DNA from: Microcoleus sp.
Lineage (GTDB): Bacteria > Cyanobacteriota > Cyanobacteriia > Cyanobacteriales > Microcoleaceae
DNA length: 64,000 nt
NCBI GenBank assembly: GCA_042408215.1
Contig: JAYFMW010000008.1
Span: forward strand, 64,001-128,000
Reading direction: 5' to 3'
The position numbers and the translations under genes were made by a program. Each line of letters begins with the position of its first letter. Positions within the stretch are counted from its first letter, which is position 1. Positions 2,654 through 33,756 of the stretch are shown one piece after another. The notes under the pieces were generated by a model that worked only from the letters and a program-made list of their open reading frames with translations, ran no database searches and was not told the origin of the DNA.

Positions 2654-2665
2654 GCTTCCTCATAA

Positions 2666-2810
2666 TATCAATTCCGGTTGCACCGGAATGATTGTTTACG
2701 GTTTACCGTTGACTGTTAACTGTTAACTGTTTACGGTTGACTGTTAACAGTTAACAGTTAACAGTTAACTGTTAACTCAAATTTACTATTCCGATGCTAA
2801 CGGATTTGAT
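2666..2810. mobile_element. MITE-like repeat (ATATCAA..CCG / CGGATTTGAT ends) carrying GTTAAC(T/A) heptamers, between atpF and atpA
   Basis: Same ends as copies at 12380, 40190, 40478, 55121 and 58401. Confidence 0.7.
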
Positions 2811-2836
2811 CTAATTTGTCGAAGTCAACATTAGTT

Positions 2837-3628: not shown

Positions 3629-3632
3629 CTCA

Positions 3633-4605: not shown

Positions 4606-4900
4606 TGAGTCTCCTGGGTAATTTCTGCTGCAACTTGTTAATCATGCGATTGCGTACCCAAATGAAGGCGCCTACGCCAACGAGCAGATGCCAAATTGCG
4701 TATTCTTGGGCGATCGCTAGCACCAAGGCAAATCCGGCGATCGCGATCGCTAGTCGCCCAAAAAAGCTGCCAAACGTTAACAGAATCGGGTTTTGGGCTG
4801 TAGGCAATTTTTGCACCGTCATCCACAAGCCACGAAAGTAGAGATTTCCCAGCAAAATTCCTAATATGAAAGTGACAGGTAAAAAGAAGAGGCTGTTCAT
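4595..4900 (-). CDS. atpR: N-ATPase AtpR/AtpI-like membrane subunit
   Basis: GILLGNLYFRGLWMTVQKL..SFFGRL; directly upstream of atpB; start MNSLFF. Confidence 0.85.
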   Translation of the reverse strand: MNSLFFLPVTFILGILLGNLYFRGLWMTVQKLPTAQNPILLTFGSFFGRLAIAIAGFALVLAIAQEYAIWHLLVGVGAFIWVRNRMINKLQQKLPRRLNAY

Positions 4901-4974
4901 GCTAAATCTCCTAATATTAAGCTCCATTTTAGTATTGATTCCTGAAAAAGCCACACTTCGACTACACTCAGTAC

Positions 4975-5345
4975 ACCGCTTTTTAAACACAAGAGAAACA
5001 TTAACCAAACTAATCAGCACAGGAACTTCTACTAAAGGGCTAATCACGGCTGCAAACCCTGGGAAGCGAGTTAATGCCAAATAAGGCGATCGCCACAGCA
5101 ATTCCTAACTCAAAGTTATTATTGGCAGTCAAAGCTAGAGTGGCGGTTTTTGCATAGCCTGCTTTAGCACGCCATCCCATGTAAAAGCTGACAAAAAACA
5201 TCACCACAAAGTAGATAGTCAAGGGCATTGCAATCCTCACCACATCCCTAGGAATTTGGACGCTCAGATAGCCCTTCCAACTAAACATGACAAGGATCGT
5301 AAACACCCAGGCGATCGGCGTGATTGGGCTGATTTTAGCGGTAAG
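4975..5345 (-). pseudogene. acr3: ACR3 arsenite efflux pump, C-terminal fragment with frameshift
   Basis: [15 protein letters not shown] in one frame, [22 protein letters not shown] in another; N-terminal part absent. Confidence 0.88.
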
Positions 5346-5379
5346 AGGGGCGCTTTTTGCGCCGCCCCTCCTACCCTCT

Positions 5380-6378
5380 TTACAGCAGCAGCGTATTGAA
5401 TATATAGCCAACGCTGATAATGCCAACGGTCATTAACCCAACAAATACGGCTAATAGTTGAGGTTTCAAAACTTTTTTAAGAATCACTATTTCAGGCAGA
5501 GATAGTGCTGTTACTGCCATTGTGAAGGCTAAAACTGTACCCATTGGCATTCCTTTATTTACTAAAGCTTCGGTAATCGGCATTACACCCGCAATGTTCG
5601 CATAGAGTGGCACGCCCAAGATTACGGCGATCGGGACAGCAAAAGGATTATTCGCGCCTGCATATTTGATAATGAAATCTGTCGGCACATAACCATGAAT
5701 AAGAGCCCCGATCGCAATACCACCCACGACATAGAGCCACACCGATCGCACAATGGAGCTCGATTGGAACCTTCCTTGCTCAAATCTTTGACTCCAAGTC
5801 AGTGCCACAGGTTCTAGGTTGTCTTCATCTTCTAGAGGCATTGCTTGACGAGATTTTTGCAGTTCCCAAACAAATGGTTCTACCCATTTTTCTAGTTTTA
5901 GTAATCCGATGATGTATCCAGAGGCGATCGCCAAACCCACACCAAAACCGATATAGATCAGCGTCACTTTCAACCCAAACAATCCCCACAAAAGGATAAC
6001 AGCAACTTCATTTACCATTGGCGCTGCCATCAGATAGGAAAAGGTCACGCCTAAAGGCACACCTGCTTCTAAAAATCCGATGAATAAAGGAACCGCAGAG
6101 CAAGAACAGAATGGCGTGACGATTCCTACCATTGCAGCCAAAATATTTCCCGCAAAAGTGCGTTTTCCTTCTAGCAAAGAGCGAACGCGCTCTGGTTCTA
6201 AAAAGCTCTGAAATGTCCCAACAATAAAGCTAATTACAATTAGTAATGTTAAGACTTTTGGCACATCGTAAAGAAAGAAGTGCAGACTCGATCCTAAATG
6301 CGATGAAATCGACAAGCCCAAGAGTTGGGTGACAATCTGGGTTGCCAACCAATCAAAAGGATAAAATGGATCGAACAT
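5380..6378 (-). CDS. arsP: ArsP/DUF318 permease
   Basis: [23 protein letters not shown] motifs; multiple TM segments. Confidence 0.85.
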
Positions 6379-6390
6379 AACTTTGCCTCT

Positions 6391-6633
6391 TTAACGCTGC
6401 AATAAGGGCTGAATTTGTTCTGGACTGAGCACTTGACCTTTGCTGACGACTTTGCCATTGATTGTCATGGCGGGAGTAGACATCACACCTCGTTTAGCGA
6501 TTTCGATGGGGTCGGTAATGTGCAGAATTTCAGCATTTAAATTGAGATTAGTTACAGCTTGTTTGGCATTTGCTTCTAGCTGTTGGCACTTTTTGCAGCC
6601 TGTACCCAAAATTTCAATCTCGATCGCATTCAT
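6391..6633 (-). CDS. Small thioredoxin-like redox protein (MTH895/Thioredoxin_3 type)
   Basis: LGTGCKKC CxxC, GVMSTPA; usual partner of ArsP. Confidence 0.9.
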   Translation of the reverse strand: MNAIEIEILGTGCKKCQQLEANAKQAVTNLNLNAEILHITDPIEIAKRGVMSTPAMTINGKVVSKGQVLSPEQIQPLLQR

Positions 6634-6687
6634 GGCATAACTCCTTTTTTGTATTCTCTAATTCAGTTCAGCTAATGTCTAGATTCT

Positions 6688-7116
6688 CTAGACCTTTTTC
6701 TCAAAGTAAGTATGAGCAAAACTTCCAAGAGGACAGTTAGGCTTCTGGTCAATTCCCAAAGTCTGAAATTGCTCAAGATATTGCGCCTCTGTCCAGCCTT
6801 CTTGTTCGGCCAATACCAATAAGATAAATACGCCCGCCCGCAATCCAGAGGCACAGCGAGTATAAATCGGCTGGGGGGATGCTTTCACCGCTTGCTTGAA
6901 GGCTTCTAGTGTTTCGACGGTCAAGTTTTTGGGTGAAACGGGAACACTGACATATTCCAAAGCCTGTTCTTTCACCATTGACGCATCAAGCTGATTTCCC
7001 TCAGCAGCAGGACACAAATCAATGACAGTCTTATAGCCTTTTTGGGCAATTTCTTGCAAGGCTTCAGAATCAGCAAGAGAACCAATGGCGGGGGTATTGG
7101 TGATGGTTTTGAACAT
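6688..7116 (-). CDS. DUF442 phosphatase/sulfurtransferase-like protein
   Basis: GYKTVIDL and CASGLRA (Cx5R-like loop); start taken at MFKTIT. Confidence 0.8.
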   Translation of the reverse strand: MFKTITNTPAIGSLADSEALQEIAQKGYKTVIDLCPAAEGNQLDASMVKEQALEYVSVPVSPKNLTVETLEAFKQAVKASPQPIYTRCASGLRAGVFILLVLAEQEGWTEAQYLEQFQTLGIDQKPNCPLGSFAHTYFEKKV

Positions 7117-7154
7117 AATGACGCACTCAATAGATGATAATCTTGGTTGATTCA

Positions 7155-7186
7155 AATATAAACCCTATACCCATGTATAATGTCAA
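7155..7186 (-). promoter_or_regulatory. MerR-type promoter/operator
   Basis: Minus strand TTGACA-20 nt-TATATT with TATAC-N4-GTATA dyad in the spacer; adjacent to a MerR remnant. Confidence 0.65.
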
Positions 7187-7240
7187 GGGGTTTTTCAAAA
7201 TATCTGGTTTTTGATTTTGACGATCTTTAAGTAGGGTTTT

Positions 7241-7423
7241 TTATTGTTCTGTGTCAAGGACGAGGCATTGATAAGCTGGATCGGGATGGTCAAAGTTGGT
7301 TTTGCATTGCTCGACTAAAGGTACTAGCTCATCATGGAGCGATCGCAATTGGTCGATATTTTCCTCAATTGCCTTAACTTTTTTGCTGAGTCTTTCATAA
7401 ACAGCTTTACAGGTGAGTAGTTT
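7241..7423 (-). pseudogene. MerR-family metal regulator, C-terminal fragment cut by IS607
   Basis: CKAVYERLSKKVKAIEENIDQLRSLHDEL..C..C coiled coil with Cys residues; HTH missing. Confidence 0.7.
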
Positions 7424-7447
7424 CCGACACTTTTTTGCTAACAAACG

Positions 7448-8580
7448 CTAACAAACGTATAAGTTAAGAGAATCTCTAAACAAAGGCGTGTCAACCAATG
7501 CCTCGCCCGTGAAAATCCCGCGAGCACCATTTAGATCCCGATCCATCTTCAACCCGGTGGCTGCGGACTTAATAGTTCTAGCGCCACCTAGATTTTTAAC
7601 GATTTCGCCCGTCCACGACACAGTTTTCGATGTGTAAGCTTCGTTGCAGTCAATCACGAGTTTTGAATTTTCCCAAGCTTTCCACTTAAGAAAAATCTTA
7701 AATTCGTAATGGCTTAGAGTCAACATTTGTCTCACCGTTTTGTTTCTCAACTTACGGCGTGACTTCGACACCATTTGAGAACTCTCGAATGTAGGCAACA
7801 GGATTACATCAAAATTATCAACTAAAAACTTAGCTACTTTGTGATGTAACTCCTTGACCAGGCTCTTGATTTTGCAACGAAGCCTACTGACTGCTTTCTT
7901 GAATCTTTTTTTCTGCCGGCTGGGGGCTTTAGAGATTTTCGATACCAATTTGTCCAACCGGAAACACAATTTCTGGATGTGCAAATTAGAATCATTTCCG
8001 AGCCAACCATAGGAGCCTTCAGAAAAAAACGTCAGGAACGTGCGGACACCGGGATCTAGGGCAACTAGACGACCTTGGTTATCGGTCTTAACTTGTTGCA
8101 CTTCTTCAGAAACAACTAGGTAATATTCGCCGTAAGTGAGAGTCAATCTACCGTCACTAAAATTTGCAGGCAAGGCTTCTGTTAACTGAAATTTACCTAA
8201 AATCGAATGATAGACACCGCAGTCTTTTATAGCCGACTTTGGCACATAAATAGATTGTTTGGTGTCTTTTTTGCTGCGAAATTTGCATTTACGAAGTTGA
8301 CTATCTTTCTTGAAGCCTTGCTTAGCTGCTTTGACTGCTGAGCAAGCATCTTTGATGGCAATCGACTTGATTTGGAAAGGTACAGGTTTTGCCCATTCTG
8401 GCAAACTGTTGAGTATTCCAGTTTTGAGCGTCATCCAGTTAGCTTTTGTGCCTAGTTCTTGGAGGTATTTGATGGTCGCGTTGTAGACAAAACGACTCAC
8501 TCCAAACTACTGCTTGATTAAAGCTTTTTGTTGAGGATTTAGGAATAGACGGATCTTCCTTGATTTTCTTGCTGTAACTT
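7448..8580 (-). pseudogene. tnpB: IS607 TnpB with early in-frame stop
   Basis: KSRKIRLFLNPQQKALIKQ*FGVSRFVYN (TAG at 8507-8509); ALDPG and DRDLNGARGI RuvC motifs. Confidence 0.88.
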
Positions 8581-9106
8581 CTGAGCCCGTGCATTCTGCA
8601 ACGGTCGCCGTGAAGGATGGCAAGAAGATCGCTTGTGAGTTCGGTTTCCGGGCAGTGAACAGTTCGGTCGAGAACCATGATTTGTCCACCGTTTTGCCAG
8701 GCCATGAACTCGAATAGTTCAAATCCGAATCGACACAATCTGTCGCGACAACAACAACAACCGTGAGCTGTTCGCCGCGCATAAATCTGACCAGTAAGGC
8801 TTGCAATCCTTTTCGCTTAAAGTTGAGTCCCGACCCGATATCTTGGGTGATTTCGGCGTCGGGGTATTGCTGTCGCATGAAGTCAACTTGTCTAGCAAGG
8901 TCGTCTCGCTGCTTGGGAGAACTGACGCGACAGTAGCAAACAATGGTAGTTCCAATTGCACCGCGCTGGTAGGACTCGACATCGTAGAGTCGTTGCCCTG
9001 CTTCGTTTTTGATGCTTTTGATCTTCCCTTCGTCTGCATATTTTCTCAAGGTATGTGGATGCAATCCCAGAAATTCGACTGCTTTTCTGAGTGGGACGTA
9101 TGCCAT
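8535..9106 (-). pseudogene. tnpA: IS607 TnpA serine recombinase, frameshifted near 8745
   Basis: HTH start LGLHPHTLRKYAD, YCRVSS, DIGSGLNFKRKG; continues CRFGFEL..RMHGLRSY in another frame. Confidence 0.9.
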
Positions 9107-9204
9107 GCAGCCAATAGTAGCATATGTTAGTAAAAATTAGCAAATACTTTACTGTGCGTCAACCTCAAACCTAGCGAAGTTTATCGCTTTGTGTTGAGTC
9201 AAGA

Positions 9205-9284
9205 TTCACGGTGGTTAAAACCACCCGCGTCGTTTCCCTCTCAGGTCTAAAGACTCGCTCGTTTCCCACTTACCGAACTTTTTT
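9205..9284 (+). mobile_element. Right-end remnant of an IscB-type (IS200/IS605) element
   Basis: GTCGTTTCCCTCTCAGG..TTTCCCACTTACCGA..TTTTT closely matches 20245-20299; followed by ATGA. Confidence 0.75.
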
Positions 9285-9465
9285 ATGAAGACTTCCTTGG
9301 ATTGTATTCCCTGTCTTTTGCGTCAATCCCTAGATGCCGCTAGGTTAGTTTCGCCCGATCCCTCTGTCCATGAGCGGGTTATTCGAGATGTTCTGCATTG
9401 GACAGGGGAAATGGACTTAAACCAATCACCGCCTGCGATCGCCCAACGCATCCATCGGCGGTTAC
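9285..9465 (+). pseudogene. DUF89/ARMT1-like protein N-terminus, truncated by IS605 insertion
   Basis: MKTSLDCIPCLLRQ...SPPAIAQRIHRRL; does not resume after the element. Confidence 0.75.
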
Positions 9466-10824
9466 CAAAAGTTTGGGTCTAAAGCCCCGTCCTTCTAGGA
9501 CGGCTTTAATTTCTATAAAGTGTAAATAATTATTAAACCTACGCACTTTTTAAACACAGTGATTTGTAAAAATGATAGAATAATGGCATGATTGTACTAG
9601 AGTTTAAGTGAAAGAGCAAAGCGCAGCAAGATCGGATTATCGACGAAATGATCCGCACAGCTCAATTTGTCCGAAACAAAACTCTTAGATATTGGATTGA
9701 TCATCAAGGAGTTAAGTTGGTCGATCTATACAAACAATGCGCCATCATGGCTAAAGAGTTTGAATGGGCAGGAAAACTTAACTCGATGGCACGTCAAGCT
9801 TCGGCGGAACGTGCCATTTTTGCTATCCAACGTTTTTTCTCGAATTGCAAAGCTAAGAAGCCAGGAAAAAAGGGATATCCACAATTTAAAAAGCAAACTC
9901 GTTCCGTAGAATATAAGACATCAGGATGGTCGCTTTCTACAGACAAAAGATGTCTCACTTTCACAGATGGCTTTGCCGCTGGAACCTTTAGGCTACTTGG
10001 TAGTCGAGATTTGCACTTCTATGCACCTGGTGAAATCAAACGAATCAGAGTAATCCGTCGTGCCGATGGCTACTACGCTCAGTTTTGTATCGACGTGGAA
10101 CGGACAGAGGAAACAATTCCTACTGGCAAAGCCGTAGGGTTGGATGTAGGTTTAAACCATTTCTACACTGATAGCACCGGAGAAACAGTTTCTAATCCTC
10201 GACATCTCCGTCAAAGTGAAAAAGCTTTAAAGCGGTTACAGAAACGAGTTTCTCGGAAAAAAAAAGGTTCCAGTAACCGTAAAAAAGCAATCAATAAGTT
10301 AGGAAGGAAACACCTGAAAGTCAGTAGGCAACGCAAAGACTTCGCCATCAAGGCGGCGTTGTGCGTGGTGAAATCTAGCGATTTCGTAGCCTACGAAAAC
10401 CTTCAGATGAGGAATATGGTGAAAAACCATAAGCTTGCAAAATCAATTAGCGATGCAGCTTGGTCACAGACTCGATCATTATTTGCAATACTTTGGAAAA
10501 GTGTACGGTAAAACAGTAGTTGCTATTGCTCCTCAGTATACTTCCCAAGATTGTTCAAGTTGTGGGAATCTAGTTAAGAAATCGCTTTCAGTTAGGACTC
10601 ATGTTTGCAGTTGTGGCACTGTTCTAGATCGTGACCATAACGCAGCTCTGAATATTTTGGCGAAAGGATTGAAAGCCCGTGCAGGAATCAATTTAAATAC
10701 GGTGGGGCACACCGAAATTAACGCTTGGGGACAGACCGACCTCTACTCGTTGGTGGTAGCATCAACGAGCAAATCGACTGACTGAACCAAGAATCAAGAG
10801 TGCCTTCAGGCCGAGGAGTGTCAA
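9466..10824 (+). mobile_element. IS200/IS605 tnpB-only element
   Basis: TTAC target, left hairpin CCCCGTCCTTCTAGGACGG, right end GAGGAGTGTCAA. Confidence 0.9.
9588..10785 (+). pseudogene. tnpB: TnpB with early stop and frameshift (~10480)
   Basis: GLDVG, YENL, CSSCG..CSCG zinc finger, DRDHNAALNI split over frames. Confidence 0.9.
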
Positions 10825-11222
10825 GCTTCCTCAATATCGAGGTTGCCCAGGAAATCCCAGTTAGAGTTAGAATAATAACCGTGTCTAGCAGTTATTATTC
10901 CAGATTGCTTGATTTGTTTATTTAGTTGATTCCACAGGCTCCAAACGTGCTTAGTTGACTTCACATCAACAAAGGCGGTTAAGGAGCCTGGTATCTTTTC
11001 GCTTAATCTCATCCCTCGACGGGCAATTACTAATGCCGGCGCCTCGTCACTAGCCAAGCCATAGATCCTCAGATATTTGACTAAACCAATAATACTAGAA
11101 TAGGCGGGATTGACTGTTATTAATTCAATCCCTCTATTAGAAAGTATTGAATTTAACTGTTTATCAAACTCAGAATAAGCCCAACTTGATAACATCCTAG
11201 CATATTTTCGCTCGCGCTCTCT
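10821..11222 (-). pseudogene. TnpB-related protein, C-terminal fragment
   Basis: VNPAYSSIIGLVKY..SDEAPALVIARRG. Confidence 0.8.
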
Positions 11223-11409
11223 CAACGGCTCCAGCTTTGGCTGTATCTTTCCAGGTTAGAAATCCGCGCACATTTTCAGTGGTGTGGTAGTCTTGGCCAA
11301 TGATCGAGAGCTTTTGCAGATCGAAGCCTTCTTTTGGCAGCTCCAATACAACCCTTTCTGCTTCTGCATGGGAGGGGAAATGACCAACAATCCTATGTGT
11401 ATATGCCAT
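11222..11409 (-). pseudogene. General stress protein (YflT/17M-like), N-terminal fragment
   Basis: VGHFPSHAEAERVVLEL..GFD..LSIIGQDYHT; truncated by junction with the TnpB fragment. Confidence 0.65.
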
Positions 11410-11455
11410 GAGTTTGTTTCCTTTGTTGCAATTTATCCGCTGTCAACTAATGCCC

Positions 11456-11905
11456 CTACAAGCTTGGTTTAATCGTGTCTTGCTTCTCTGTAGTTACCGC
11501 AGCAGTTTCAGCATCTCGTCTAGCAGCGATCGCTTCCAAGGTTGCTTTTTCGGCTTCTTCCATCGCCGCCATTGCTAATAAAATCGCTGTATTTGCATAT
11601 TCTTCAGCTTGCTCTGCCCGATGTTCGAGTTTCGTGAGTTCGCGACTCGCTTTCCATTCCTCGACATTCGACTTCACCTCAGATTCTTTGGCCTCGAATT
11701 GAGTTTTGAGCTTGGCTCGGTACTCATCGAATTCTTGTTTCTTAGCGTCTAGCTTTGTCTTCATTTCGTCGAGTTTCGATTGAATCTCAGCTTGAGTTTT
11801 TTTCGGCGCTGATTGAATGCTTTCCTTGAGAGATTTTGCTCGCTCTTCAACGGCTTCTAAATTGTCATGAAGTTGTTTGGTAAAGTTATCAATTGCAGTA
11901 CCCAT
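11456..11905 (-). CDS. Hypothetical coiled-coil protein
   Basis: 149-aa K/E/A-rich ORF with RBS-like GAGGAAG. Confidence 0.75.
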   Translation of the reverse strand: MGTAIDNFTKQLHDNLEAVEERAKSLKESIQSAPKKTQAEIQSKLDEMKTKLDAKKQEFDEYRAKLKTQFEAKESEVKSNVEEWKASRELTKLEHRAEQAEEYANTAILLAMAAMEEAEKATLEAIAARRDAETAAVTTEKQDTIKPSL

Positions 11906-12379
11906 GATGCTTCCTCTAGTATGTTGAGTTTCTAAGACTTGTCGAGAGTGTTATTAAATTGCCAGCCAGCTATAAAAGTCGTTGTTGTCAATGACCTCAT
12001 ATACTCTACTGGTGAAAAACTGAAATAACTCTTTCATGATTTGATGATTTCATGATGCGGAGTTATTGCCATCTATCTTAGGTTTAAGATGTGAATATCT
12101 TGAGAGGTAGCTAGATCCCTGATTTGTCACTCCCTCCCATGCTGACGGGGTGACAACCCAGTCAAAACCCTTCTGGCCTTGGAAGAGAGATGATTTATGG
12201 TAAAAGATTTATGGTAGAGCCGAAGTCAGGATTCAGGAGTCAGGAGTCAGGAGTCAGGAGCGTTGCTCGATCGCCGGTCGTTGGGTTAGGAGTAGGATGC
12301 TTCACTATTAAGGGTGGAATCAATCATTCATCTCCTGACAGCCCTCTTCTACTGCTATAAACAGGACTTATATTGTTTA

Positions 12380-22629: not shown

Positions 22630-22700
22630 GTTGTATTTTGTCTCGTCGTATTTTGTCTGGTTGTATTTTGTCTGGTTGTATTTTGTCTCGTTGTATTTTG
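22630..22700. repeat. 15-bp tandem repeat, ~5 copies (TTGTATTTTGTCTSG)
   Basis: Directly visible. Confidence 0.85.
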
Positions 22701-23066
22701 CCCATCGGCCGATGAAGAACTTCAATGGCTGAGCGTGATTGAAGTGAACTACCAGACTAGAAATGCTCCGCATACAGCACTGGCTTCCTGATTCATCGGG
22801 ATGTGCTTTTATCTCCGAAAAGATAAGTAGTCTTACCGTCCCGACCCAGGCTGGAGTCCTAGTTCCTAAGACCCATATTTTTTCTTGCAACACGTCCCGT
22901 TCAGCTTGTTTTTCGCATTGGGAGATTATGGTCAAGATACACTTATCATATCATTGATTCGCTATCACTCAATTTATTTTCTGGCTCACTTTCATCCCGT
23001 CACTCATCCTGTAAACGGATAGAGTGCGGGACTTCCCGTTCGCATTAGTTAAAAGGTTCCGAAAAG

Positions 23067-23523: not shown

Positions 23524-23597
23524 AGCGGGTAAGGGTTGACGGTAGCCGTTCTTCCCACCCCTAAGAACCGTGCGCGAATGTTACAGCAATTCCCGCT
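23524..23597 (-). other. Group II intron domain V/VI-like remnant
   Basis: Minus strand ..CGCACGGTTCTTAGGGG..TTACCCGCT resembles a D5-D6 3' end; no RT ORF. Confidence 0.55.
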
Positions 23598-23733
23598 GTT
23601 ATGAAACACGGTAGGGACACGGCTCTTGGAGTGTCCCTAGGAGGATTGAACGATAAGTGAGTGTACCTCATAACAGCGGTTTCCGCTGTAAGCTGCGTAG
23701 CAGTTTATTATATTTTGATATGACTGCACTGCC

Positions 23734-25491
23734 CTAGATACTGGGAATTCCCATAGCATCGGTATTTCCCCCATTAACTTGTTGCCAAAGGGTGCCATAG
23801 ACTCCTCCTTGTTCCAGCAAATCTGTATGGCTACCAGATGCCACAATACTGCCATTTTCTAGGACAAAAATTTTATCCGCACGCAAGGCATGAGCAATGC
23901 GGTGGGTAATCATAATTACTGTGCGTTGTTTAGAAATGCGATCGATTGTAGCGAGAATACCCGCTTCCGTTACCAGGTCAAGGGCGGATGTCGCTTCGTC
24001 TAAAATCAAAATAGCCGGATTTCTGACTAATGCTCTAGCGAGGGCGATTCTTTGGCGTTGTCCGCCCGATAACTGTCCGCCTCTGTCACCGACGGGGGTA
24101 TCATAACCTTGGGGTAAGGTGAGGATAAATTCGTGAATTTCTGCATCTTTGGCGGCGATTTCGACTTCCTCATCGGTGGCTTCTAAATATCCCATTCTGA
24201 TATTTTCACGGATGGAAGTGTTAAATAAAATTACCTCTTGAGAAACCAGCCCAATTTGCTCGCGCAGGGATTTTTGAGTGCAGGAACGCAAATCAATGCC
24301 ATCAAAAAGAATGCTACCTTTATCTGGGTCATAAAGTCGGGTTAATAGGTTAACGATGGTACTTTTACCCGCACCGGAATGTCCAACAAAGACAACAAAA
24401 TCGCCTTGGTGGATGGTTAGGGATAGGTTATTAACTCCTTTTCGCTCTGAAGAATAGTTAAAGGTAACGTTATCAAAGCGAATTTCACGGGAAAAATGGG
24501 GTAATTCAATGGCATCCGGTGCGTCTTGGACTTGTGGAACTTCAGCCAACAGAACGGAGATGCGCTGCATCGCGGCTATTCCTTCTATTAGGTAAGGCAA
24601 GGAAAACGTAAAGCTGAGGATGTTTAGATTTAACCCGACTAATAAAACCTGAAAAGAGACGAGTGTACCTACTGTAATTATGTTTTTGTAGGTCATTACT
24701 GCGCCGATACTGATGATGGCAAGCTGGACAAATACAAAGACTAGAGTGGGAATCCTTTGGACTAAATAAGAGGAAAACTTGGCTTTAACATAAACTTTTT
24801 TTAGAGCCTGCAAATCCTTGGAAAAATTGTTAATGGTTCGGGGTTGTAAGCCAAATAATTTAACAACGGATTGAGATAGGATATTTTCTTGAATGACATT
24901 AGCAATTTCTCCTTGCTGGTTTCTCAATTGATAGTTTTGCACTGTAGCTTTTTGACCAATTTTTGCGGGTGCAATGACACAGAAGGTTAAACCAATACAA
25001 CTAATCAGCCCTAACTGCCAGTTGAGGGAAAACATAAAAATAGCAGAAAATAGAATGCTACCTAATTCTAAAATTATTATTAATCCGTAAGCCAAGCTAT
25101 TTTCTATTTTTTCGATATCGCCTGAAAAACAGTTGACAATATCTCCGGCTGAACGTCGCCCAAAAAACTCCATAGATAGGTTTTGCAGGCGAACGAACAT
25201 AGAATGGCGGATATTGTTGATGACTGAAATGTTAAACCGCGTCGCCCAATAATCTCCTAATAAACCGACGAAGACAAATAAAACTGCTGCTCCACCCAGC
25301 AATAGGATAATTAAAACCAGAAGACGGTAATTTTGGGGAATAATGGCTGCGTCGATAATAAATTTTAAGCTGATTCTAATTGAGGATTCAAAGACTGCCT
25401 CAAAAAGTCCACGAGCGATGAGAATAATTGCTAACCATCTGTAGGGAGCGATGTATTTATTCAGTTCTTTGAGAAACCAATTTAGATTCAT
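23734..25491 (-). CDS. ABC exporter, fused permease + ATPase
   Basis: GHSGAGKST, LSGGQRQR, LILDEATSALD. Confidence 0.96.
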   Translation of the reverse strand: MNLNWFLKELNKYIAPYRWLAIILIARGLFEAVFESSIRISLKFIIDAAIIPQNYRLLVLIILLLGGAAVLFVFVGLLGDYWATRFNISVINNIRHSMFVRLQNLSMEFFGRRSAGDIVNCFSGDIEKIENSLAYGLIIILELGSILFSAIFMFSLNWQLGLISCIGLTFCVIAPAKIGQKATVQNYQLRNQQGEIANVIQENILSQSVVKLFGLQPRTINNFSKDLQALKKVYVKAKFSSYLVQRIPTLVFVFVQLAIISIGAVMTYKNIITVGTLVSFQVLLVGLNLNILSFTFSLPYLIEGIAAMQRISVLLAEVPQVQDAPDAIELPHFSREIRFDNVTFNYSSERKGVNNLSLTIHQGDFVVFVGHSGAGKSTIVNLLTRLYDPDKGSILFDGIDLRSCTQKSLREQIGLVSQEVILFNTSIRENIRMGYLEATDEEVEIAAKDAEIHEFILTLPQGYDTPVGDRGGQLSGGQRQRIALARALVRNPAILILDEATSALDLVTEAGILATIDRISKQRTVIMITHRIAHALRADKIFVLENGSIVASGSHTDLLEQGGVYGTLWQQVNGGNTDAMGIPSI

Positions 25492-26638
25492 TTTTATTCA
25501 AGGGGGAAGACTTTATATAACATCTAGCAAAAGCCTCAGTAATAATTTCTGACATCAATTGTGCAAAGGGAACGCCAGCTAGGTGTAATATAGTACCAAC
25601 TGGTGTTTCTAATGGGTCGGAGAACGTCGAGAAAGGTTTGGAAGAAATGGCACAGTTTGCATTTACTTCTAGGACAAATAGTTCTTTAGATAGTTTATCC
25701 ATTCGTATATCTACCCGTCCATAACCATTCCCACTTACTGCACAGTAAGCACCTTTAGCTAAATCGCAAAGTCTTTCACGCAACTCAGGATTAACGATTT
25801 TGTGGCGAATAAATGGTTTCTCTCTTTTCCAAGAGGTTTTTCCTTCATCTTTTCCCCAGTAGCGATCGTGTGATAAAAACTGTTCGGTTTCAGGTAAATC
25901 AGTGTTAAATATAATTTCTAGAGGTGGGTAGATTTTAATCTTCTCTGGTTGCTGATAAGAACCGATTACAAAGACTGTAAACTCAGAACCATTAATAAAA
26001 CTTTCTACAAAGATACTGTCGGACGATAATAGCATCCCCCCATGATTTTTTTCTATTAAACATTTAACCTGTGCGCCGATCTGTTCATCGCTGTACACAA
26101 CCGAGTTTAAAGAAAGCCCATAGCTACCGCCAGACAGCACTGCTGGTTTTACAATTAGGGGTGTACCGAGGCGATCACACACTCCTTCAACATTATTAAA
26201 ATCGTATATTACTTCATAGGGAGCAGTAGCTATTCTTGCTTCTGATAAAGCGTGTTTTAGGGAAATTTTATTGGTATTGAAACTGTCAAAAATTGAATCT
26301 GCACCGACAAAAATGATGCCTTTGGCTTCTAATAGCTTGATGAGAGAAACACCGGGACACTCATCAATTTCATCCAAACCATCACAATAATTCAGCACCA
26401 CAGGAATAAGCTCAGGGGTAGAAACTGCGATTTTTTCTACAACATCGTGCATATTTTCTAAGCTAACTGACTGACGTTTCCAGGGCACACCAAGCTCGGA
26501 AAAGACATCAATCATTTCCTGTTCAAAAGACTGTGTATGAAAGGCTTCCATCCATTCTTGTTTGATTTTGGAGGATGGGGTTAATACCCAAACAAAGAGC
26601 CTGCTACTGGGTACAGGGAATTTGTGAAAAATTGTCAT
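25457..26638 (-). CDS. D-Ala-D-Ala-ligase-like ATP-grasp enzyme
   Basis: PLIVKP, ESFINGSEFTV, GYGRVDIR, VLEVN. Confidence 0.88.
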   Translation of the reverse strand: MTIFHKFPVPSSRLFVWVLTPSSKIKQEWMEAFHTQSFEQEMIDVFSELGVPWKRQSVSLENMHDVVEKIAVSTPELIPVVLNYCDGLDEIDECPGVSLIKLLEAKGIIFVGADSIFDSFNTNKISLKHALSEARIATAPYEVIYDFNNVEGVCDRLGTPLIVKPAVLSGGSYGLSLNSVVYSDEQIGAQVKCLIEKNHGGMLLSSDSIFVESFINGSEFTVFVIGSYQQPEKIKIYPPLEIIFNTDLPETEQFLSHDRYWGKDEGKTSWKREKPFIRHKIVNPELRERLCDLAKGAYCAVSGNGYGRVDIRMDKLSKELFVLEVNANCAISSKPFSTFSDPLETPVGTILHLAGVPFAQLMSEIITEAFARCYIKSSPLNKNESKLVSQRTE

Positions 26639-26681
26639 TGATTTTATTTTTTATAGACTAAAAGTAAATAGCGATATACTT

Positions 26682-27845
26682 TCATACTGATTGGTAAACC
26701 AATCCTGATTTAGAATAATACCTACTCAAAGCCTCAGCAATTATTTCTGACATCAGTTGTGCAAAAGGAATCTGACCGAGGTGTAAAATAGTACCAACTC
26801 TGGACGTATTTGGCTCTTCCACACCCATTGTAAGAGACCTAGAAGTGACAGCGGGACAGGGATTTACCTCTAAAACAAACATCTCTTGAGTTATATTGTC
26901 CATGCGGATGTCTACTCGTCCATATCCAGTACCACCCACTGCACAGTAAGCACGTTTAGCTAAATCACCGAGCCGCTTATGCAATTCAATTGGTGCTAAT
27001 TGATAACCAAATAATGGTTCCTGATTGGGCGGGAGAGTTCGCTCTTCTACTTCTGTTATCCGTAATTCACGGGTATAAAATTGCTCGGTTTCAGGTACAC
27101 CAGAGTGAAAAACGGTTTCTACAGGTGGATAAACTTCAATTCGCTCTGACTGTTGAGCATTTCCTACGAGTAAAACCGTAAATTCTCGACCTTTAATAAA
27201 TCCTTCGACAAAGATACTGTCTGCCGGAATCTGCATCCCATGTTGTCCTTGCTGTAGCTCCTCAAATCGATTGATCGCATCTTCATCACTGTGAACAACA
27301 GATTTCAAACAAATGCCTCTAGTGCCAAACGAAGCTGAAGGTTTGACAATCAGTGGAGGTACAAGGCGATCGCACAATCCCCGAATACTAATGACATCCT
27401 TAATCACCTCATAAGGTGCAGTTGAAACTCCCGACTCAACAAAAGCCTCTTTCATCAATATCTTGGAGTCCCCCATTTTAAAAAATTGAGAATCTGCCCC
27501 CGCAAAAGGAATACCCTTAGCTTCCAATAATTTGACAACGGAAGCGCCCGGATATCCATCAACTTCATCTAGTCCCGCACAGTAGTTCAGTACAAGTGAG
27601 AAATATTGGGCTTGGGAAGCAGCAACTTCTTCGATCGCTGCCTTCATATTCTCTAAGGTGATTAGCTTAAACTTCCATGCCACCTCCAGTTCCGCAAAAA
27701 CATCGGCTAGTTCTTGCTGAAAATATAAAGGATTAAATTCTTCGTTAGAAAAATCTTGCTCTACGGATAGACAGGGAATGAATGCCCAGACAAGTATCTC
27801 TTTATCGGAAAGCGGGGGATTTTGGATTTGTTGAATTGATTTCAT
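26682..27845 (-). CDS. D-Ala-D-Ala-ligase-like ATP-grasp enzyme (paralog)
   Basis: PLIVKP, EGFIKGREFTV, GYGRVDIR, VLEVNP. Confidence 0.88.
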   Translation of the reverse strand: MKSIQQIQNPPLSDKEILVWAFIPCLSVEQDFSNEEFNPLYFQQELADVFAELEVAWKFKLITLENMKAAIEEVAASQAQYFSLVLNYCAGLDEVDGYPGASVVKLLEAKGIPFAGADSQFFKMGDSKILMKEAFVESGVSTAPYEVIKDVISIRGLCDRLVPPLIVKPSASFGTRGICLKSVVHSDEDAINRFEELQQGQHGMQIPADSIFVEGFIKGREFTVLLVGNAQQSERIEVYPPVETVFHSGVPETEQFYTRELRITEVEERTLPPNQEPLFGYQLAPIELHKRLGDLAKRAYCAVGGTGYGRVDIRMDNITQEMFVLEVNPCPAVTSRSLTMGVEEPNTSRVGTILHLGQIPFAQLMSEIIAEALSRYYSKSGLVYQSV

Positions 27846-27921
27846 TTTTTAGATAGGGTTAACAGGATTGCTGAGGTGGACAAAAACAATACCTTAGTGT
27901 TAGGTAAAGCCTATTGGCAAT

Positions 27922-28530
27922 TTATGAAAAACTATACTGGCACTCTTTGGATTCCAAAAAGTTTCTATATAGGCGTTGAAAAGGTGATTTAACTCGCTGT
28001 AAATGTTCAAAATTAAATACATCTAGCATCAGAGCAAGACCACTGCCATATTCGGGGTGATTTATCATATCAATCGTTTGATAGCCTATTTTTTGAAAGA
28101 AAGGAATCATGTGGGGTTCGCAGTCTATAAAATCAAACTTTATTCCATCTAGCAGTAATTGATGGTAATTTGCTTGCACTATTCTCAAAGCCATTGTACT
28201 TCCTCTAAAATGTGGTTCGATCATAAGTTTTGTGCTGATTGATGTACTCAATGGATGTGCATCTCCGGCAATATCACTGATTTGATAAAGCTCTGCATAG
28301 TACCCTAAATCTGAATTTATAGCATAGTTGCTTCTAACCGTACCCACCAAATTACCATTTTGAAAAGCCACAAATATGTTGCCGAATTTATCTAGCGGTT
28401 CTTCTATTTTGTAGTGTTGTTTCTCTGCATAGTGTTGGCTATATCCCAGTTCTTCTACATAGATTTGATAGCGCAATTTGAAAACCTGTTCTTTTTCTTC
28501 GGGGGTTTTAGCTAATCTTATTTCCAGCAT
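27922..28530 (-). CDS. GNAT-fold acyltransferase, FeeM/LuxI-like
   Basis: VFKLRYQIYVEELGY, LVGTVR, KLMI..FRG, FFQKIGY. Confidence 0.8.
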   Translation of the reverse strand: MLEIRLAKTPEEKEQVFKLRYQIYVEELGYSQHYAEKQHYKIEEPLDKFGNIFVAFQNGNLVGTVRSNYAINSDLGYYAELYQISDIAGDAHPLSTSISTKLMIEPHFRGSTMALRIVQANYHQLLLDGIKFDFIDCEPHMIPFFQKIGYQTIDMINHPEYGSGLALMLDVFNFEHLQRVKSPFQRLYRNFLESKECQYSFS

Positions 28531-28571
28531 GGTATTTCTATATCCGTAAATTCAGAGTTTGTTTTTAGTTA

Positions 28572-28831
28572 GGGCGATCGCCCTTCGGATGTGGAAATTT
28601 AATCGGGGGGCGATCGCCTTTCAGGTGGCGGGACTGCTAGAAAATAGTGCAGTCCTACCTGTTGCGGCAATGCGAGTCTGTGGAAGTTGGTTAGAGGGGC
28701 GATCGCCCTTCGGATGTGGAAATTTAATCGGGGGGCGATCGCCTTTCAGGTGGCGGGACTGCTAGAAAATAGTGCAGTCCCTACCTGTTGCGGCAACGCG
28801 AGTCTGTGGAAGTTGGTTAGAGGGGCGATCG
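28572..28831. repeat. Tandem duplication of a ~125-bp unit bounded by HIP1 sites
   Basis: Units start at 28572 and 28697, third start at 28823; near-identical. Confidence 0.9.
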
Positions 28832-28944
28832 TGCTTAATGAATGATGGCAAGAGTAAAGTCAAGATTGATTTAAGAGCGCTCTGTTGAAAGCCGTTAATT
28901 TTGAGCTTGCTGTCAAAAAAAAAATGCTCTTAATTCCGGCAAAC

Positions 28945-29322
28945 TTATTGTATTGATTGCTTGATTATGAAACGTATTGAAAAATATGGTGGTAGACTTT
29001 CCGTTTCCTTGGTTTTGCCGTTGTAATTTACTTTTACTGGCGCATTTGTATCGATCACAGGCCAATCGTTTCCACCAGCTTTTCGTGTCTGATAAGACAC
29101 TGTTGCATTCACCTCGAAATCATGTGTATGGGTCTTGTTACCTCCAACTTTACCAACTGGGTTGTTATCGTCCACACCTCGTGGGAATAATCCAGATAAG
29201 TTCGGCGTGCCATTTTTCCCATCGCATATTTCCCAACCGGCCGGTACATTCTTATCACTTCCAGACCACATAATTATTGCTCCCACTGGGAAATCAAGGT
29301 TTGAGATTTGTGTGATTGTCAT
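28945..29322 (-). CDS. Stand-alone phage tail-collar-like domain protein
   Basis: PVGAIIMWSG..PAGWEICDG..TPNL..FPRG; C-terminal LPPYFSIRFIIK. Confidence 0.8.
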   Translation of the reverse strand: MTITQISNLDFPVGAIIMWSGSDKNVPAGWEICDGKNGTPNLSGLFPRGVDDNNPVGKVGGNKTHTHDFEVNATVSYQTRKAGGNDWPVIDTNAPVKVNYNGKTKETESLPPYFSIRFIIKQSIQ

Positions 29323-29574
29323 ATTTTTGTGTGTCTCCTCATTAAAGAGTTTCGATACTGTCTAGCTAATAATAAGACGATTCCCGAAGCCAAATTGTGA
29401 ACTCTTCAACTGCATAACTTTCCGAAACTCGTCGCACCCGATAAAACCAACCCAAAAATGCGCCCCTCTTCCTCTTCAGGGCAAGCAGAAACGAGTCAAT
29501 ATCACACCAGTCTTCTCTTGTCAAGGAAATCACGATATAATTTTCACTACTATTCCGGCTAGGTGTAAAGTTAC

Positions 29575-30027
29575 AAGTCCCTTGACATTAAACCTAGAAC
29601 CGTTCACCTGACAGACAAACAGTTCTATCAGTTATGTCAAAATAACCGCGAGTTACAGTTTGAACGAACTGCCAAAAGAGAATTAATTATTATGTCACCC
29701 GTTGGCGCGAAACCGAATTAATTGCCGCTTGGATTCAGCGCGAACGCTGGGAAGCACTCACGCCCGAACAACGCCATAAAATTTCCCCCCATTGCACCCG
29801 ATTTTGCGATCGAATTAAGGTCAGCAACAGATGATTTGGAAATGTTGCGTTCCCAAATGCAGGAATATATGGGCGCAGGAGTGCAATTGGGATGGTTAAT
29901 TAACCCCCAACAGCAACAAGTAGAAATTTATCGCGCACGACAAGACGTGGAAGTGCGAAATCTCCCCACAGAATTATCAGGTGAAAATATATTGTCTGGA
30001 TTTAGCTTGAGTCTATCCCCCGCATAA
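29575..30027 (+). pseudogene. Uma2/DUF820 endonuclease-fold pseudogene
   Basis: FYQLCQNNRELQFERTA..LIIMSPVG and APDFAIELRS..LGWLINP, with frameshift and internal deletion. Confidence 0.85.
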
Positions 30028-31102
30028 ACCGGGTTTCTTTCGGGGTAAAGGCTAAGATTTTATCGATCAAAACTAGAGAAACCCGGTTTCTCATTTCCCC
30101 AGAAACCGACTTCCTTTCAGCATTAAAACTAACATTTATTCGCTTAAAGCTAAAGAAACCCGGTTTCTCGCCCTTCATCCTTTCCTCTAGTTCCAGCTTT
30201 TCTCTATGCGCTACAGACAGCGCCGCCGACTGGGGTTCCCCATCAGCAACAATCTCTATTTCCTCTAACTTCTCATCAGGTTGAGCCTCCACCAAAACAG
30301 GCTCAATCTGCGTAACAGACAGCGCCACCTCTGGTAATTCTATAGCAGCAACAATTTGTACTTCTTCTAACTCCCCAGATAAGATTATCTCGCCCGCAAC
30401 GGGTTCTTTTTGAGCAGTCTTCTTCGACTTCCTTGGTTTTGCAGACTGAGGAGAAACCCTCGACTTAGGATTAGACAAATCAGAGTCAGTCCCATCTTCA
30501 GAGAAATTTTCATTGAACCGCTGACGCAAAATTGCCCGCGCCTGGGAAATCCGCTTGCGGACGTTATCGTAGGAAATATTAAGCTGTTCGGCAATATCTG
30601 GATAAGATAGCCCTGACTCAAAATGGAGAATAAAAGTCTCGCGTAATCTATCTGGCAACTCATCTATTGTGCCACGAAAAAATAATTCGAGTTCGCGCTG
30701 CATAGCAGCGCGAACTGGTGTTTCTTCTTGGCTAATTAATTCGGTTTCGTTTCCTATAGCAATGGTGTCTAAACTGTCAACTCCTAGTGCACCCCTGTTG
30801 CGCTCTCGATGGATATCGGCGCACAGGTTATAAGTCAGTTTGGTTAACCAAGCCTTAAAGTTTTTGATCTCATCGGTACAATCTCTTGCTTTCTCCCAAG
30901 CTTTGAGCATCGCCCGACTGAGGGCATCTTCAGCATCGGTTGGATTGCTCATCCACTTGCGACAGCAACGGTAAAGATAATCTTGATTATCCTGCCATAA
31001 TTTCCAAAAAGCTGAATCTATATCTTGAGTGCCTGAGCAAGGGATTGATGCAGAACTACAACTTAACATCTCTGGAGCCTGAAACTCTAGGTGGACAAAC
31101 AA
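30002..31102 (-). CDS. ECF sigma-70 factor with acidic C-terminal extension
   Basis: DAEDALSRAMLKAW, FKAWL, LPDRLRETF..LSYPDIAEQLNIS..VRKRISQAR. Confidence 0.88.
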   Translation of the reverse strand: MFVHLEFQAPEMLSCSSASIPCSGTQDIDSAFWKLWQDNQDYLYRCCRKWMSNPTDAEDALSRAMLKAWEKARDCTDEIKNFKAWLTKLTYNLCADIHRERNRGALGVDSLDTIAIGNETELISQEETPVRAAMQRELELFFRGTIDELPDRLRETFILHFESGLSYPDIAEQLNISYDNVRKRISQARAILRQRFNENFSEDGTDSDLSNPKSRVSPQSAKPRKSKKTAQKEPVAGEIILSGELEEVQIVAAIELPEVALSVTQIEPVLVEAQPDEKLEEIEIVADGEPQSAALSVAHREKLELEERMKGEKPGFFSFKRINVSFNAERKSVSGEMRNRVSLVLIDKILAFTPKETRFMRGIDSS

Positions 31103-32207: not shown

Positions 32208-33756
32208 AAGAAATACCCTGAAAACCCTGTGACTTTAGTCCAGGGATGAAAGGGCGTGGCAGGATTTATCCTGCCTGTTCGTAAGTTTCAATATAACATA
32301 ATGTTTAACCGTCCCCGGACAAATACTTCTAGCAATTGAGATCAAGGTAAAGATTTGTTGAGGATTAATTAACTTGTTAATTCACGATATATACTAAACC
32401 TAGTGTCACAACAACAAAAGCAAATTAATGTACGCAGTGCAAAAAGATGTTTGGCATTTAAAAGGACTCGACAAAACCATTGTCGAACAACTACTAAGAT
32501 GGTCAAATAATCTGTTTAATGTCGGAACTTACGAAAGTCGGCAACGATACTTTAAGAACCAAATCGCAGTTAAATATCCAGATTTGTATAAAATAGCCAA
32601 AACCAACGAAAATTATGGGTTACTATACTCTCAAGTTGCCCAACAATCTCTTAAATCTGTCGCAGAATCTTTTACTTCTTTCCGAGCCTTAGAGAAGTTG
32701 GCAAATCAAGGAGAAATCCATCAAAAACCGAGACTACCAAGGTACAGAACAAAAGGGGGAATGTACCCCGTTTCATATCCCGGTCAAGCCTTAAAGGTGA
32801 TTGGAAATAAAGTCAGATTACCCCTGGGGAAAAAAGGAAAAGAATACTTTGGGAAAGATGCGATTTGGGTTCCACTACCTGAACGTATCAAGAATTGCCA
32901 GATCAAAGAACTCAGGTTAATCCCTAGAAATGGTGAGGTCTGGGTCGAATATGTCCACGAATCTCTGACTGAGCAAGCTCCTAGTTGTAGCCTGGAAGTA
33001 ACAGGGGTTTTGGGAATAGATCATGGCATCAATAACTGGTTAACTTGTGTCTCTAGCAATGGTAAACCTTTCATCATTGATGGACATAGACTCAAGTCTT
33101 GGAACCAATGGTTTAACAAAGAAAAAGCGAGAGTTCAATCAGAACACGCAATACATAAATTACCCAAAGGTTTTTCGTCAAAAAGATTACAACAGTTGTC
33201 GGAAATTCGCACTAGAAGGATGAGAGATGCTGTCAACAAAGCAGTTAGAACCATCGTAGATTATTGCGAAAATCACCAAATCAATGTCTTAGTCTTTGGC
33301 TGGAACAAGGCACAGAAGCAAGAGGTTAATATGGGGGTCGTAACTAATCAGAATTTTGTCCAAATACCCACAGCTAAAGTCAAAGATAGACTCCAGCAAG
33401 AATGCGACTTAAGAGGGTGGCGATTTGTTGAACAAGATGAATCTTACACATCAAAAGCAAGTTTTTTAGACCGAGACATTTTGCCAGTAAAAGTCGGTGA
33501 AAAACCTGACAATTGGCAACCATCGGGTAAAAGAATCAAAAGAGGATTGTACTGTTCTAGCGCTGGGTTGTTAATCAATGCAGACGTTAACGGTGCAGCT
33601 AATATCATTAGAAAGTCAAAAGTAGCCATAGACTCAATTCTTGAGCGAGTGGGTAGTGGGTTGCTGACTAATCCTTTAAGAATTAAACTTTGGGCGGATT
33701 CATCCCCCAAAGTTTGTCCTTAAGAATCCCCGTGTCTTTAGACCGGGGAGTGTCAA
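32208..33756 (+). mobile_element. IS200/IS605 tnpB-only element
   Basis: TTAT before left hairpin CCCTGTGACTTTAGTCCAGGG; right end ATCCCCG..CGGGGAGTGTCAA. Confidence 0.88.
32428..33723 (+). CDS. tnpB: TnpB RNA-guided nuclease family, uninterrupted ORF
   Basis: GIDHG, QNFVQIP, ESYTSKAS, NADVNGAANI. Confidence 0.93.
   Translation: MYAVQKDVWHLKGLDKTIVEQLLRWSNNLFNVGTYESRQRYFKNQIAVKYPDLYKIAKTNENYGLLYSQVAQQSLKSVAESFTSFRALEKLANQGEIHQKPRLPRYRTKGGMYPVSYPGQALKVIGNKVRLPLGKKGKEYFGKDAIWVPLPERIKNCQIKELRLIPRNGEVWVEYVHESLTEQAPSCSLEVTGVLGIDHGINNWLTCVSSNGKPFIIDGHRLKSWNQWFNKEKARVQSEHAIHKLPKGFSSKRLQQLSEIRTRRMRDAVNKAVRTIVDYCENHQINVLVFGWNKAQKQEVNMGVVTNQNFVQIPTAKVKDRLQQECDLRGWRFVEQDESYTSKASFLDRDILPVKVGEKPDNWQPSGKRIKRGLYCSSAGLLINADVNGAANIIRKSKVAIDSILERVGSGLLTNPLRIKLWADSSPKVCP

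Follow-up and report, generated by a model that had tools for sequence, protein, structure and literature searches.

What might a cyanobacterium make with an acyltransferase, two paralogous ligases and an exporter encoded side by side? The question is raised by a 64,000-nucleotide (nt) stretch of Microcoleus sp. (contig JAYFMW010000008.1, positions 64,001 to 128,000; hereafter the window), in which the window list of open reading frames (ORFs) shows four minus-strand genes of this kind. In our reading, to which we give a probability of roughly 0.6, the acyltransferase, then a first ligase (lig1) and then a second (lig2) build an N-acyl pseudopeptide without a nonribosomal peptide synthetase (NRPS), and the ATP-binding cassette (ABC) protein exports it. 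The four genes, with lengths in amino acids (aa), are the following; Ddl is short for D-alanine-D-alanine ligase, AF2 for AlphaFold2.

27922..28530, minus strand: acyltransferase of the GNAT superfamily, FeeM/LuxI-like branch, 202 aa (Pfam FeeM, AF2 model, fold searches); predicted first step
26682..27845, minus strand: lig1, Ddl-like ATP-grasp ligase of the acyltransferase-linked subfamily, 387 aa (AF2 model, subfamily tree)
25457..26638, minus strand: lig2, paralog of lig1 from another subfamily, 393 aa; fills a variable third slot
23734..25491, minus strand: ABC exporter of the fused membrane and ATPase type, 585 aa (Pfam ABC_membrane and ABC_tran)

Gene content of the cassette

The four cassette genes are real, intact and maintained under purifying selection. 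A contig of run X2, which comes from an independent study, carries all of them in the same order with 14 letters differing over 23689-28703, and pairwise dN/dS was 0.17-0.36 in six of six comparisons across the cassette genes (0.35-0.36 for the acyltransferase, 0.24-0.27 for lig1 and 0.34 for lig2). The initial annotation of this DNA had described co-directional, tightly packed genes that are more AT-rich than their flanks, and the measurements agree: 76 nt separate the acyltransferase from lig1 and 43 nt lig1 from lig2, the start of the ABC gene overlaps lig2 by 35 nt, and the cassette has a GC content of 40.0%, whereas its 5-kb flanks have 46.4% and 43.1% and the genome 45.1%, with only 2.1% of 1519 genome segments of 4.8 kb each as low. 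The window lies on contig C8 of a 7.36-Mb genome (G000), and its named close homologs come mostly from Microcoleus. Promoter and terminator scans did no better than shuffled sequence (17 vs 15.1 and 9 vs 6.4). Among the contigs of RNA run X13, which as contigs cannot show transcription, two short ones fall on lig2 (depth below 3) and none on the acyltransferase or lig1.

A conserved unit with a variable third slot

Genomic context was available for six lig1 loci, namely the window and loci L009, L012, L091, L100 and L208. The acyltransferase (hereafter GNAT) lies directly upstream of lig1 in all six, and an ABC exporter lies downstream in five. The conserved unit is GNAT and lig1 followed by a variable slot and the ABC gene, not the four genes. 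This third slot holds lig2 in the window, a ligase of another subfamily fused to lig1 in L009 (the same fusion occurs in protein P0312), an S-adenosylmethionine (SAM) methyltransferase in L100 and, in L012 and L208, a 290-aa protein together with IDI-2 (TIGR02151 at 411.8 bits, cut-off 281.3). L012 occupies the very same chromosomal site as the window cassette, with about 2.2 kb of other DNA in place of lig2, and in run X8 2241 other letters stand where lig2 would be. Only one other genome examined (G024) has the exact four-gene order, with fused ligases and a second ligase of a different subfamily; of the synteny by which the initial annotation proposed to judge the system, what recurs is GNAT-lig1-X-ABC. 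Within the genus, the GNAT was found in 4 of 79 genomes and adjoins a family ligase in all four.

Two relatives of the cassette bear on the acyl donor and on the order of the reactions. L208 is a complete-looking cluster (2249-12202 of G451:C186) with a lig1 85% identical to that of the window, and its genes run phenylalanine ammonia-lyase (PAL), AMP-binding ligase, GNAT, lig1, 290-aa protein, IDI-2, ABC and methyltransferase. The PAL matches a Nostoc PAL at E 6.5e-277 and, since PAL and the AMP-binding ligase lie upstream, the acyl donor in L208 is plausibly cinnamoyl-coenzyme A (CoA), which makes the cluster a candidate for a cinnamoyl, prenylated and methylated amide. In L101, the GNAT of which is 71% identical to that of L208, the order is PAL, AMP-binding ligase, O-methyltransferase, GNAT, ABC; a ligase is missing between the last two. 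Since a GNAT from the PAL-linked subclade thus occurs without one, L101 suggests that the GNAT acts first, on a free metabolite.

The two ligases

Lig1 and lig2 are 48% identical and, as had been pointed out before, are paralogs with LNYC.GLDE.D..PG, GYGRVDIRMD, VLEVN and GTILHL in common. All four predicted substrate loops differ between them: lig1 has NYCAG, SFGTRG, TREL and EVNPxP, and lig2 has NYCDG, LSGGSYG, SHDRY and EVNANC. The AF2 model of lig1 (pLDDT 86, pTM 0.87) has a three-domain ATP-grasp fold that is nearest to DdlA (Z 28.6, rmsd 3.0 A over 305 residues; Ddl structures range over Z 24-28.6), against Z 20-22 for LysX/RimK (RimK 20.6), 20.2 for an L-amino acid ligase, and 15.0 and 14.7, at ranks 48-49, for MdnB and MdnC, which bears out the earlier view of these ligases as Ddl-like rather than RimK-like. 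Both also match Pfam Dala_Dala_lig_C (48.5 and 51.5 bits, cut-off 24). The ATP-grasp signature of two Lys, two Glu, R-x-D and E-x-N is present in the family: all 82 family rows keep K128, K168, E214, E221, R310 and D312, while 80 of them have E326 and N328, the other two being gapped there. These eight correspond to the ATP, metal and oxyanion residues of Ddl.

The likeness to Ddl thus comprises the fold, at about 3 A rmsd, and the ATP- and metal-binding residues, whereas the identity to the Ddl of the same genome is only 21-25%. In an alignment with that Ddl, the motifs GGxSxEhEvS, YxxKY and PGxT were not found in the ligases, and the place of LHG is taken by NYC(A/D)G, with the Cys in 82 of 82 rows; these four Ddl motifs, YxxKY being that of the omega loop, are the ones that bind D-Ala. 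TIGR01205 reaches 61.1 and 60.4 bits, about a quarter of its cut-off of 245.65, TIGR00768 reaches 20-30 bits against 143.4, and the Pfam scan gave no match to Dala_Dala_lig_N in either ligase. Since a canonical Ddl sits at C6:531954-533024, a housekeeping Ddl identity for lig1 and lig2 is rejected. With the catalytic residues intact, the D-Ala motifs missing and a separate canonical Ddl present, the two are probably active carboxylate-amine ligases with substrates other than those of Ddl. The initial annotation had Ddl-type enzymes joining free amino acids; that these two join ordinary alpha-amino acids found no support, given the missing D-Ala motifs and a wider group that lies near enzymes of beta-amino acids, polyamines and amidino compounds. 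An Ala at position 90 was considered as a marker of an acylated substrate and is a weak one, as Ala, Thr, Ser, Ile, Tyr or Asn stand there in GNAT-free subfamilies as well. The genome encodes another Ddl-like ATP-grasp protein (394 aa, LNTGG motif) at G000:C10:85603-86784, outside all groups of the tree described below.

The two ligases belong to an uncharacterised family that is mislabelled in databases, many of its members carrying the automatic annotation "D-alanine-D-alanine ligase". A search with the family profile gave 247 representatives at E <= 1e-30 among 1.84 billion, and four of ten clusters looked up bear eukaryotic names (tardigrade P0189, aphelid P0212, chytrid P0223 and euglenid P0261). 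The family ligase is patchy, being present in 7 of 79 genomes of the genus and 9 of 401 of the order. A quick tree of 91 rows groups the family as one clade (SH-aLRT 95) next to the Ddl-SET proteins; Ddl and a type linked to lysine 2,3-aminomutase (LAM) fall outside it on long branches. The cyanobacterial members form one clade (100) and split into many subfamilies with different substrate-loop motifs. The subfamily of lig1 has 24 rows (support 1.0) on a long branch (0.35), that of lig2 has 7 rows (support 1.0), and the NYCDG motif of lig2 is that of the GNAT-free majority of the family. This tree, in which MysD is not included, sets the ligases apart from Ddl; no mycosporine-like amino acid genes were recognised near the cassette in the window ORF list. 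Beyond the cyanobacteria, we considered 63 loci (Bacteroidota, Gemmatimonadota and others), of which 62 lie above the ligase threshold and 55 have downstream room, and a Ddl-SET fusion lies within 800 nt of the ligase in 54 of these 55. In L021-L083, from Bacteroidota and Gemmatimonadota, the operon consists of SET, ligase and Ddl-SET, often with an ATPase-less ABC membrane protein in addition.

The acyltransferase and its acyl donor

The FeeM/LuxI-like fold that had been proposed for the acyltransferase holds, although other GNATs match it as well. Pfam FeeM scores 28.9 bits (cut-off 27), and Foldseek ranked CoA-dependent acyl-homoserine lactone (AHL) synthases at the top, with BjaI first (E 4e-10) and MesI and RpaI among them. 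The AF2 model (pLDDT 87) gave tied structure matches to FeeM (Z 17.4), a generic GNAT (17.0), LasI (16.7) and RpaI (16.4). With FeeM and BjaI/RpaI the enzyme shares the fold and the N-terminal R-Y/F-x-x-E-x-G motif; unlike them, it has no Glu in the beta-4 motif and is coupled to ATP-grasp ligases, and it is 13-17% identical to them.

For the acyl donor, the initial annotation had named acyl-ACP (acyl carrier protein). In FeeM-type enzymes, the signs of such a donor are reported to be an altered P-loop and an ACP partner (PMC11685415). A CoA-binding-type loop, R-R/K-x-G-I-G, is found in 4 of 23 aligned homologs, and RKNGIG in one more. The GNATs of L208, L101 and L102, which are 47-50% identical to that of the window and form a neighbouring subclade, differ in context, with PAL and an AMP-binding ligase beside those of L101 and L208. 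Neither an ACP nor a LuxR gene was recognised beside the window acyltransferase among the neighbouring ORFs and their Pfam matches. By analogy with these relatives, acyl-CoA would more likely be the donor than acyl-ACP: the relatives behind PAL and a CoA-ligase-type enzyme and the four canonical CoA loops put the earlier claim in question, with one relative beside an ACP in its favour. Since no donor gene lies next door in the window cassette, the thioester would come from primary metabolism.

Gene neighbourhoods in cyanobacteria

We compared 20 cyanobacterial ligase loci within a radius of 7 kb, some of them cut by contig ends and L208 not among them. The neighbours counted were an extracytoplasmic function (ECF) sigma factor at 13 loci, an ABC protein of the same subfamily at 11, this GNAT at 6, an amidinotransferase (E 1e-135 to AGAT) and Ddl-SET at 5 each, an 857-aa double ATP-grasp protein and the 290-aa protein at 4 each, an EctC-like protein at 3, PanD, IDI-2, a methyltransferase and SET at 2 each, and an aminotransferase at 1. 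The cyanobacterial ligase loci are mix-and-match mini-clusters of small-molecule enzymes for amines and acids, and 85-93% identical copies of the ABC protein close cassettes with other cargo.

The 290-aa protein (L012:11460-12329, L091:13713-14579 and L208:7496-8377) lies beside IDI-2 in L012, L094 and L208 and carries a DLxDYxED motif. It had no Pfam, NCBIfam or PDB match, and an Atlas search gave a 0.89 lead to a terpene-synthase cluster and nothing more; a guess from IDI-2 and the motif is that it may be a new prenyltransferase with the fold of terpene synthases. In L011/L017, L013, L015 and L093, the 857-aa double ATP-grasp protein stands beside EctC-like or PanD genes; it had no PDB match. 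We assume it to be carnosine-synthase-like, and it could possibly serve beta-alanyl dipeptide synthesis in cyanobacteria. In L205 and L206, a Ddl-SET gene and an EamA transporter are direct neighbours of a SAM decarboxylase, a context hinting at polyamine substrates. The genome of the window also holds a biosynthetic-looking locus, L195:2821-13987 (G000:C15), that encodes an amidinotransferase, an aminotransferase and a flavin enzyme, together with desaturase-like genes and a GNAT-like ORF.

Proposed pathway and alternative explanations

In the proposed pathway, the acyltransferase would first acylate the amine of a small amino acid, with a thioester as the donor. Lig1 would then use ATP to form an acyl-phosphate on the carboxylate of the N-acyl product and join it to a second amine, and lig2 would attach a third unit, this being one tailoring step among several that can replace each other. 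The ABC protein would finally export the product, which would act outside the cell, probably in defence or competition. This order of steps is drawn from the GNAT without ligase in L101, the fixed pairing of GNAT and lig1 and the tailoring enzymes in the third slot. We infer each reaction, the order, the substrates and the role of the product from what was observed in gene content, folds, residues, linkage and selection. Because sister modules accompany PanD, LAM, amidinotransferase or SAM decarboxylase, the amine partners may by analogy be beta-amino acids, polyamines or guanidino compounds, which is a lead only. A small exported acyl-amide, as had been anticipated, is retained as the predicted product from gene content and context; signal, surfactant or allelochemical are the roles that had been suggested for it.

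Several observations weigh against this reading. The coupling of GNAT and ligase is not obligate: within 2.5 kb of the ligase this GNAT was found at 0 of the 62 non-cyanobacterial loci, it occurs without a family ligase in three of five hits among the 401 genomes of the order (G143, G162 and G344), and it often lies beside a SET gene (L098, L105, L177 and L179). Distant acyltransferase homologs adjoin, or are fused to, iron-containing redox (heme-oxygenase-like) enzymes in L103, L111, L114 and L115, which counts against tight coupling. L091 has GNAT and lig1 without an ABC gene, and L101 is cut off within its ABC gene and might carry a ligase beyond that point. As for the donor, the window enzyme has the loop RGSTMA in place of the canonical R-x-x-G-x-G, and in L102 an ACP stands beside the GNAT, along with a chorismatase-like gene and an AMP-binding ligase. 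Moreover, plain acetyl transfer is possible, the FeeM match of the model being tied with ordinary acetyltransferases.

That tie also favours a reverse order, in which the ligases would join free amino acids or amines first and the acyltransferase would cap the product last, for tailoring or self-protection. The lack of a GNAT at 14 of the 20 cyanobacterial ligase loci and the lig2 motif, shared with the GNAT-free majority, point the same way. Yet the GNAT of the PAL-linked subclade does without a ligase in L101, and the lig1 branch is long and always accompanied by a GNAT, as expected of adaptation to an acylated substrate; we regard the reverse order as unlikely.

Another explanation is that the enzymes modify a macromolecule, be it the peptidoglycan stem, a surface polymer or a protein, which is one option that Gagunashvili and Andresson proposed for the sister "Ddl3". 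Ddl is indeed the closest fold, and the ABC protein scores best to MsbA/HepA-type models, though below their cut-offs. The family's usual partners, SET methyltransferases and GNATs, commonly have proteins as substrates. Against this, the genome already has its canonical Ddl, family members occur in eukaryotes that lack peptidoglycan (chytrid, tardigrade and aphelid), the partners PAL, IDI-2, amidinotransferase and PanD are small-molecule enzymes and no conserved substrate ORF lies nearby, which leaves macromolecule modification distinctly improbable.

The Foldseek matches raise the possibility that the acyltransferase is LuxI-like and synthesises an acyl- or aroyl-homoserine lactone signal from SAM, with the ligases modifying the lactone or working independently. 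BjaI aligns with the enzyme at the N-terminal R, E-D and R positions, and PAL with a CoA ligase could feed an aroyl-homoserine lactone synthase, as RpaI is. LuxI-type synthases, however, have a conserved E-x-S-R on beta-4 and a cognate LuxR; the window enzyme has TSISTK where BjaI has WEWSRY, with no acidic residue on that strand, and no LuxR-type gene was recognised among the neighbouring ORFs of the window. A lactone, besides, has no free carboxylate or amine for the ligases, and we find this explanation very improbable.

Hardly credible is a graspetide cluster of microviridin type whose precursor lies at a distance, or a pair of spare D-Ala-D-Ala ligases, for although the gene inventory is like that of microviridin clusters, which also carry a GNAT, and the homologs bear the Ddl label, the weak MdnB/MdnC matches beside those to Ddl, the low TIGR01205 scores and the missing D-Ala motifs speak against both, and graspetide identity is largely refuted, with no RimK-like cyclase and no precursor found. 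As had been remarked, no precursor peptide is evident: none was seen among the small ORFs at 28400-30100, and a TxKYPSD-type motif, which we take to be the microviridin core, is absent from the six frames of the genome, other precursor types being outside that search.

Returning to the stepwise acyl-pseudopeptide pathway, we tentatively extend it, at less than even odds, to an undescribed combinatorial system. An old Ddl-derived family, which pairs with SET methyltransferases in Bacteroidota and Gemmatimonadota and also occurs in chytrids and tardigrades, would have radiated in filamentous cyanobacteria into many substrate-specific subfamilies. Modules for acyl, aroyl, amidino, prenyl and methyl groups would have been recombined with these behind ECF sigma factors, yielding a whole range of secreted acyl-pseudopeptides; lig1 would activate N-acylated acids, and the invariant active-site Cys (C89 in lig1) might be part of a new mechanism. 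If the stepwise reading is right, a widespread ligase family mislabelled as D-Ala-D-Ala ligase would gain a function, and a class of small metabolites that mat- and crust-forming cyanobacteria secrete, likely overlooked by NRPS-centred mining, would come into view. The natural swaps, with the same lig1 and pump but another acyl donor and third enzyme, lend themselves to a direct test of the chemistry with three small soluble proteins, and ligases that accept N-acylated acids would be useful amide-forming biocatalysts.

Chromosomal site and neighbouring elements

Three further features of the window lie upstream of the acyltransferase.

30002..31102, minus strand: ECF sigma factor heading the island (Pfam Sigma70_r2/r4, TIGR02937); possible regulator
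28945..29322, minus strand: ORF of 125 aa that occupies a hypervariable slot, with the sigma factor on one side and the acyltransferase on the other; weak phage tail collar match, below cut-off
28572..28836, no strand: a stretch of about 125 bp, duplicated in tandem, upstream of the acyltransferase; L012 aligns to both copies with one stretch

The cassette is flanked by an RsbW-like gene and DUF1350, and its site is a variable island: of 14 hand-picked relatives, 4 have nothing at the site, 9 have an ECF sigma factor there with unrelated cargo, and 1 has other genes. The ECF sigma gene lies 1.5 kb upstream of the cassette, and its candidacy as a dedicated regulator is weakened, since it heads unrelated cargo at the same site in those 9 of 14 relatives. 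The 125-aa ORF is probably not part of the pathway; its slot holds other DNA in runs X2 and X8 and a 309-aa ORF in L012. At the same site, nine relatives (L180-L188) have the ECF sigma factor followed by a conserved, secreted-looking protein of 135-140 aa, by DUF4347 proteins and by a protein of 900 aa that matches nothing in Pfam. Genes for MACPF, PI-PLC-like, peptidase C58 and lectin proteins are found in related islands, and a role in defence or competition would fit such cargo. Carriage on plasmids found no support, a search of 72,556 plasmid records giving no match at E 1e-15.

Other elements surround the cassette as well. A 15-bp tandem repeat lies at 22630-22704, a 107-bp element with inverted ends, missing from run X2, at 23581-23691 just 3' of the ABC gene, and a multi-copy element at 32428-33723, with three further copies in its own genome (G000), which we assume to be of the TnpB family.

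Comparison with described systems

The nearest relative described so far is the operon LAM-SET-"Ddl3" of a lichen Nostoc, where Ddl3 is a MXAN_4097-like amidoligase beside a MATE pump and, in the available text, its function is only proposed (PMC5987646). Both systems have a Ddl-like ligase without the N-terminal D-Ala motif of Ddl, beside amine-modifying enzymes and an exporter, and both are sparse in Nostocales and Oscillatoriales. The window differs in having NYC(A/D)G, an acyltransferase and an ABC pump, and neither LAM nor SET; a match to LAM was not found in G000 with the query used. The nine LAM-linked cyanobacterial ligases, which we match to Ddl3 by gene order, have FN(I/F/L)AEG, and on the window family profile they reach 47-67 bits where members reach about 600. 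Identity with the published operon is therefore rejected in favour of a sister type (FNIAEG against NYC(A/D)G).

The pathways of dapdiamide (DdaF, DdaG) and E-64 (Cp1B, Cp1D) are NRPS-independent routes to pseudotripeptides, and an mfa cluster homologous to that of E-64 is reported in Microcoleus itself (PMC12568646). They resemble our proposal in that stand-alone enzymes build a small acylated pseudopeptide stepwise; they differ, as far as the available text goes, in using glutathione-synthetase-like ATP-grasp enzymes with adenylating amide synthetases and no FeeM-type first step, and the window cassette has no epoxidase gene. Microviridin clusters, in the available description, likewise combine two paralogous ATP-grasp genes with an ABC transporter, but have RimK-like cyclases and a ribosomal precursor (PMC8939145), neither of which was found in the window.

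In agreement with the initial annotation, which had recognised no characterised match, we found no description of this cluster in the literature searched, most subscription papers lying outside the search. NRPS-independent amide synthesis is a known logic; what is new here is the combination of an uncharacterised family of Ddl-fold ligases with an acyltransferase and a swappable slot.

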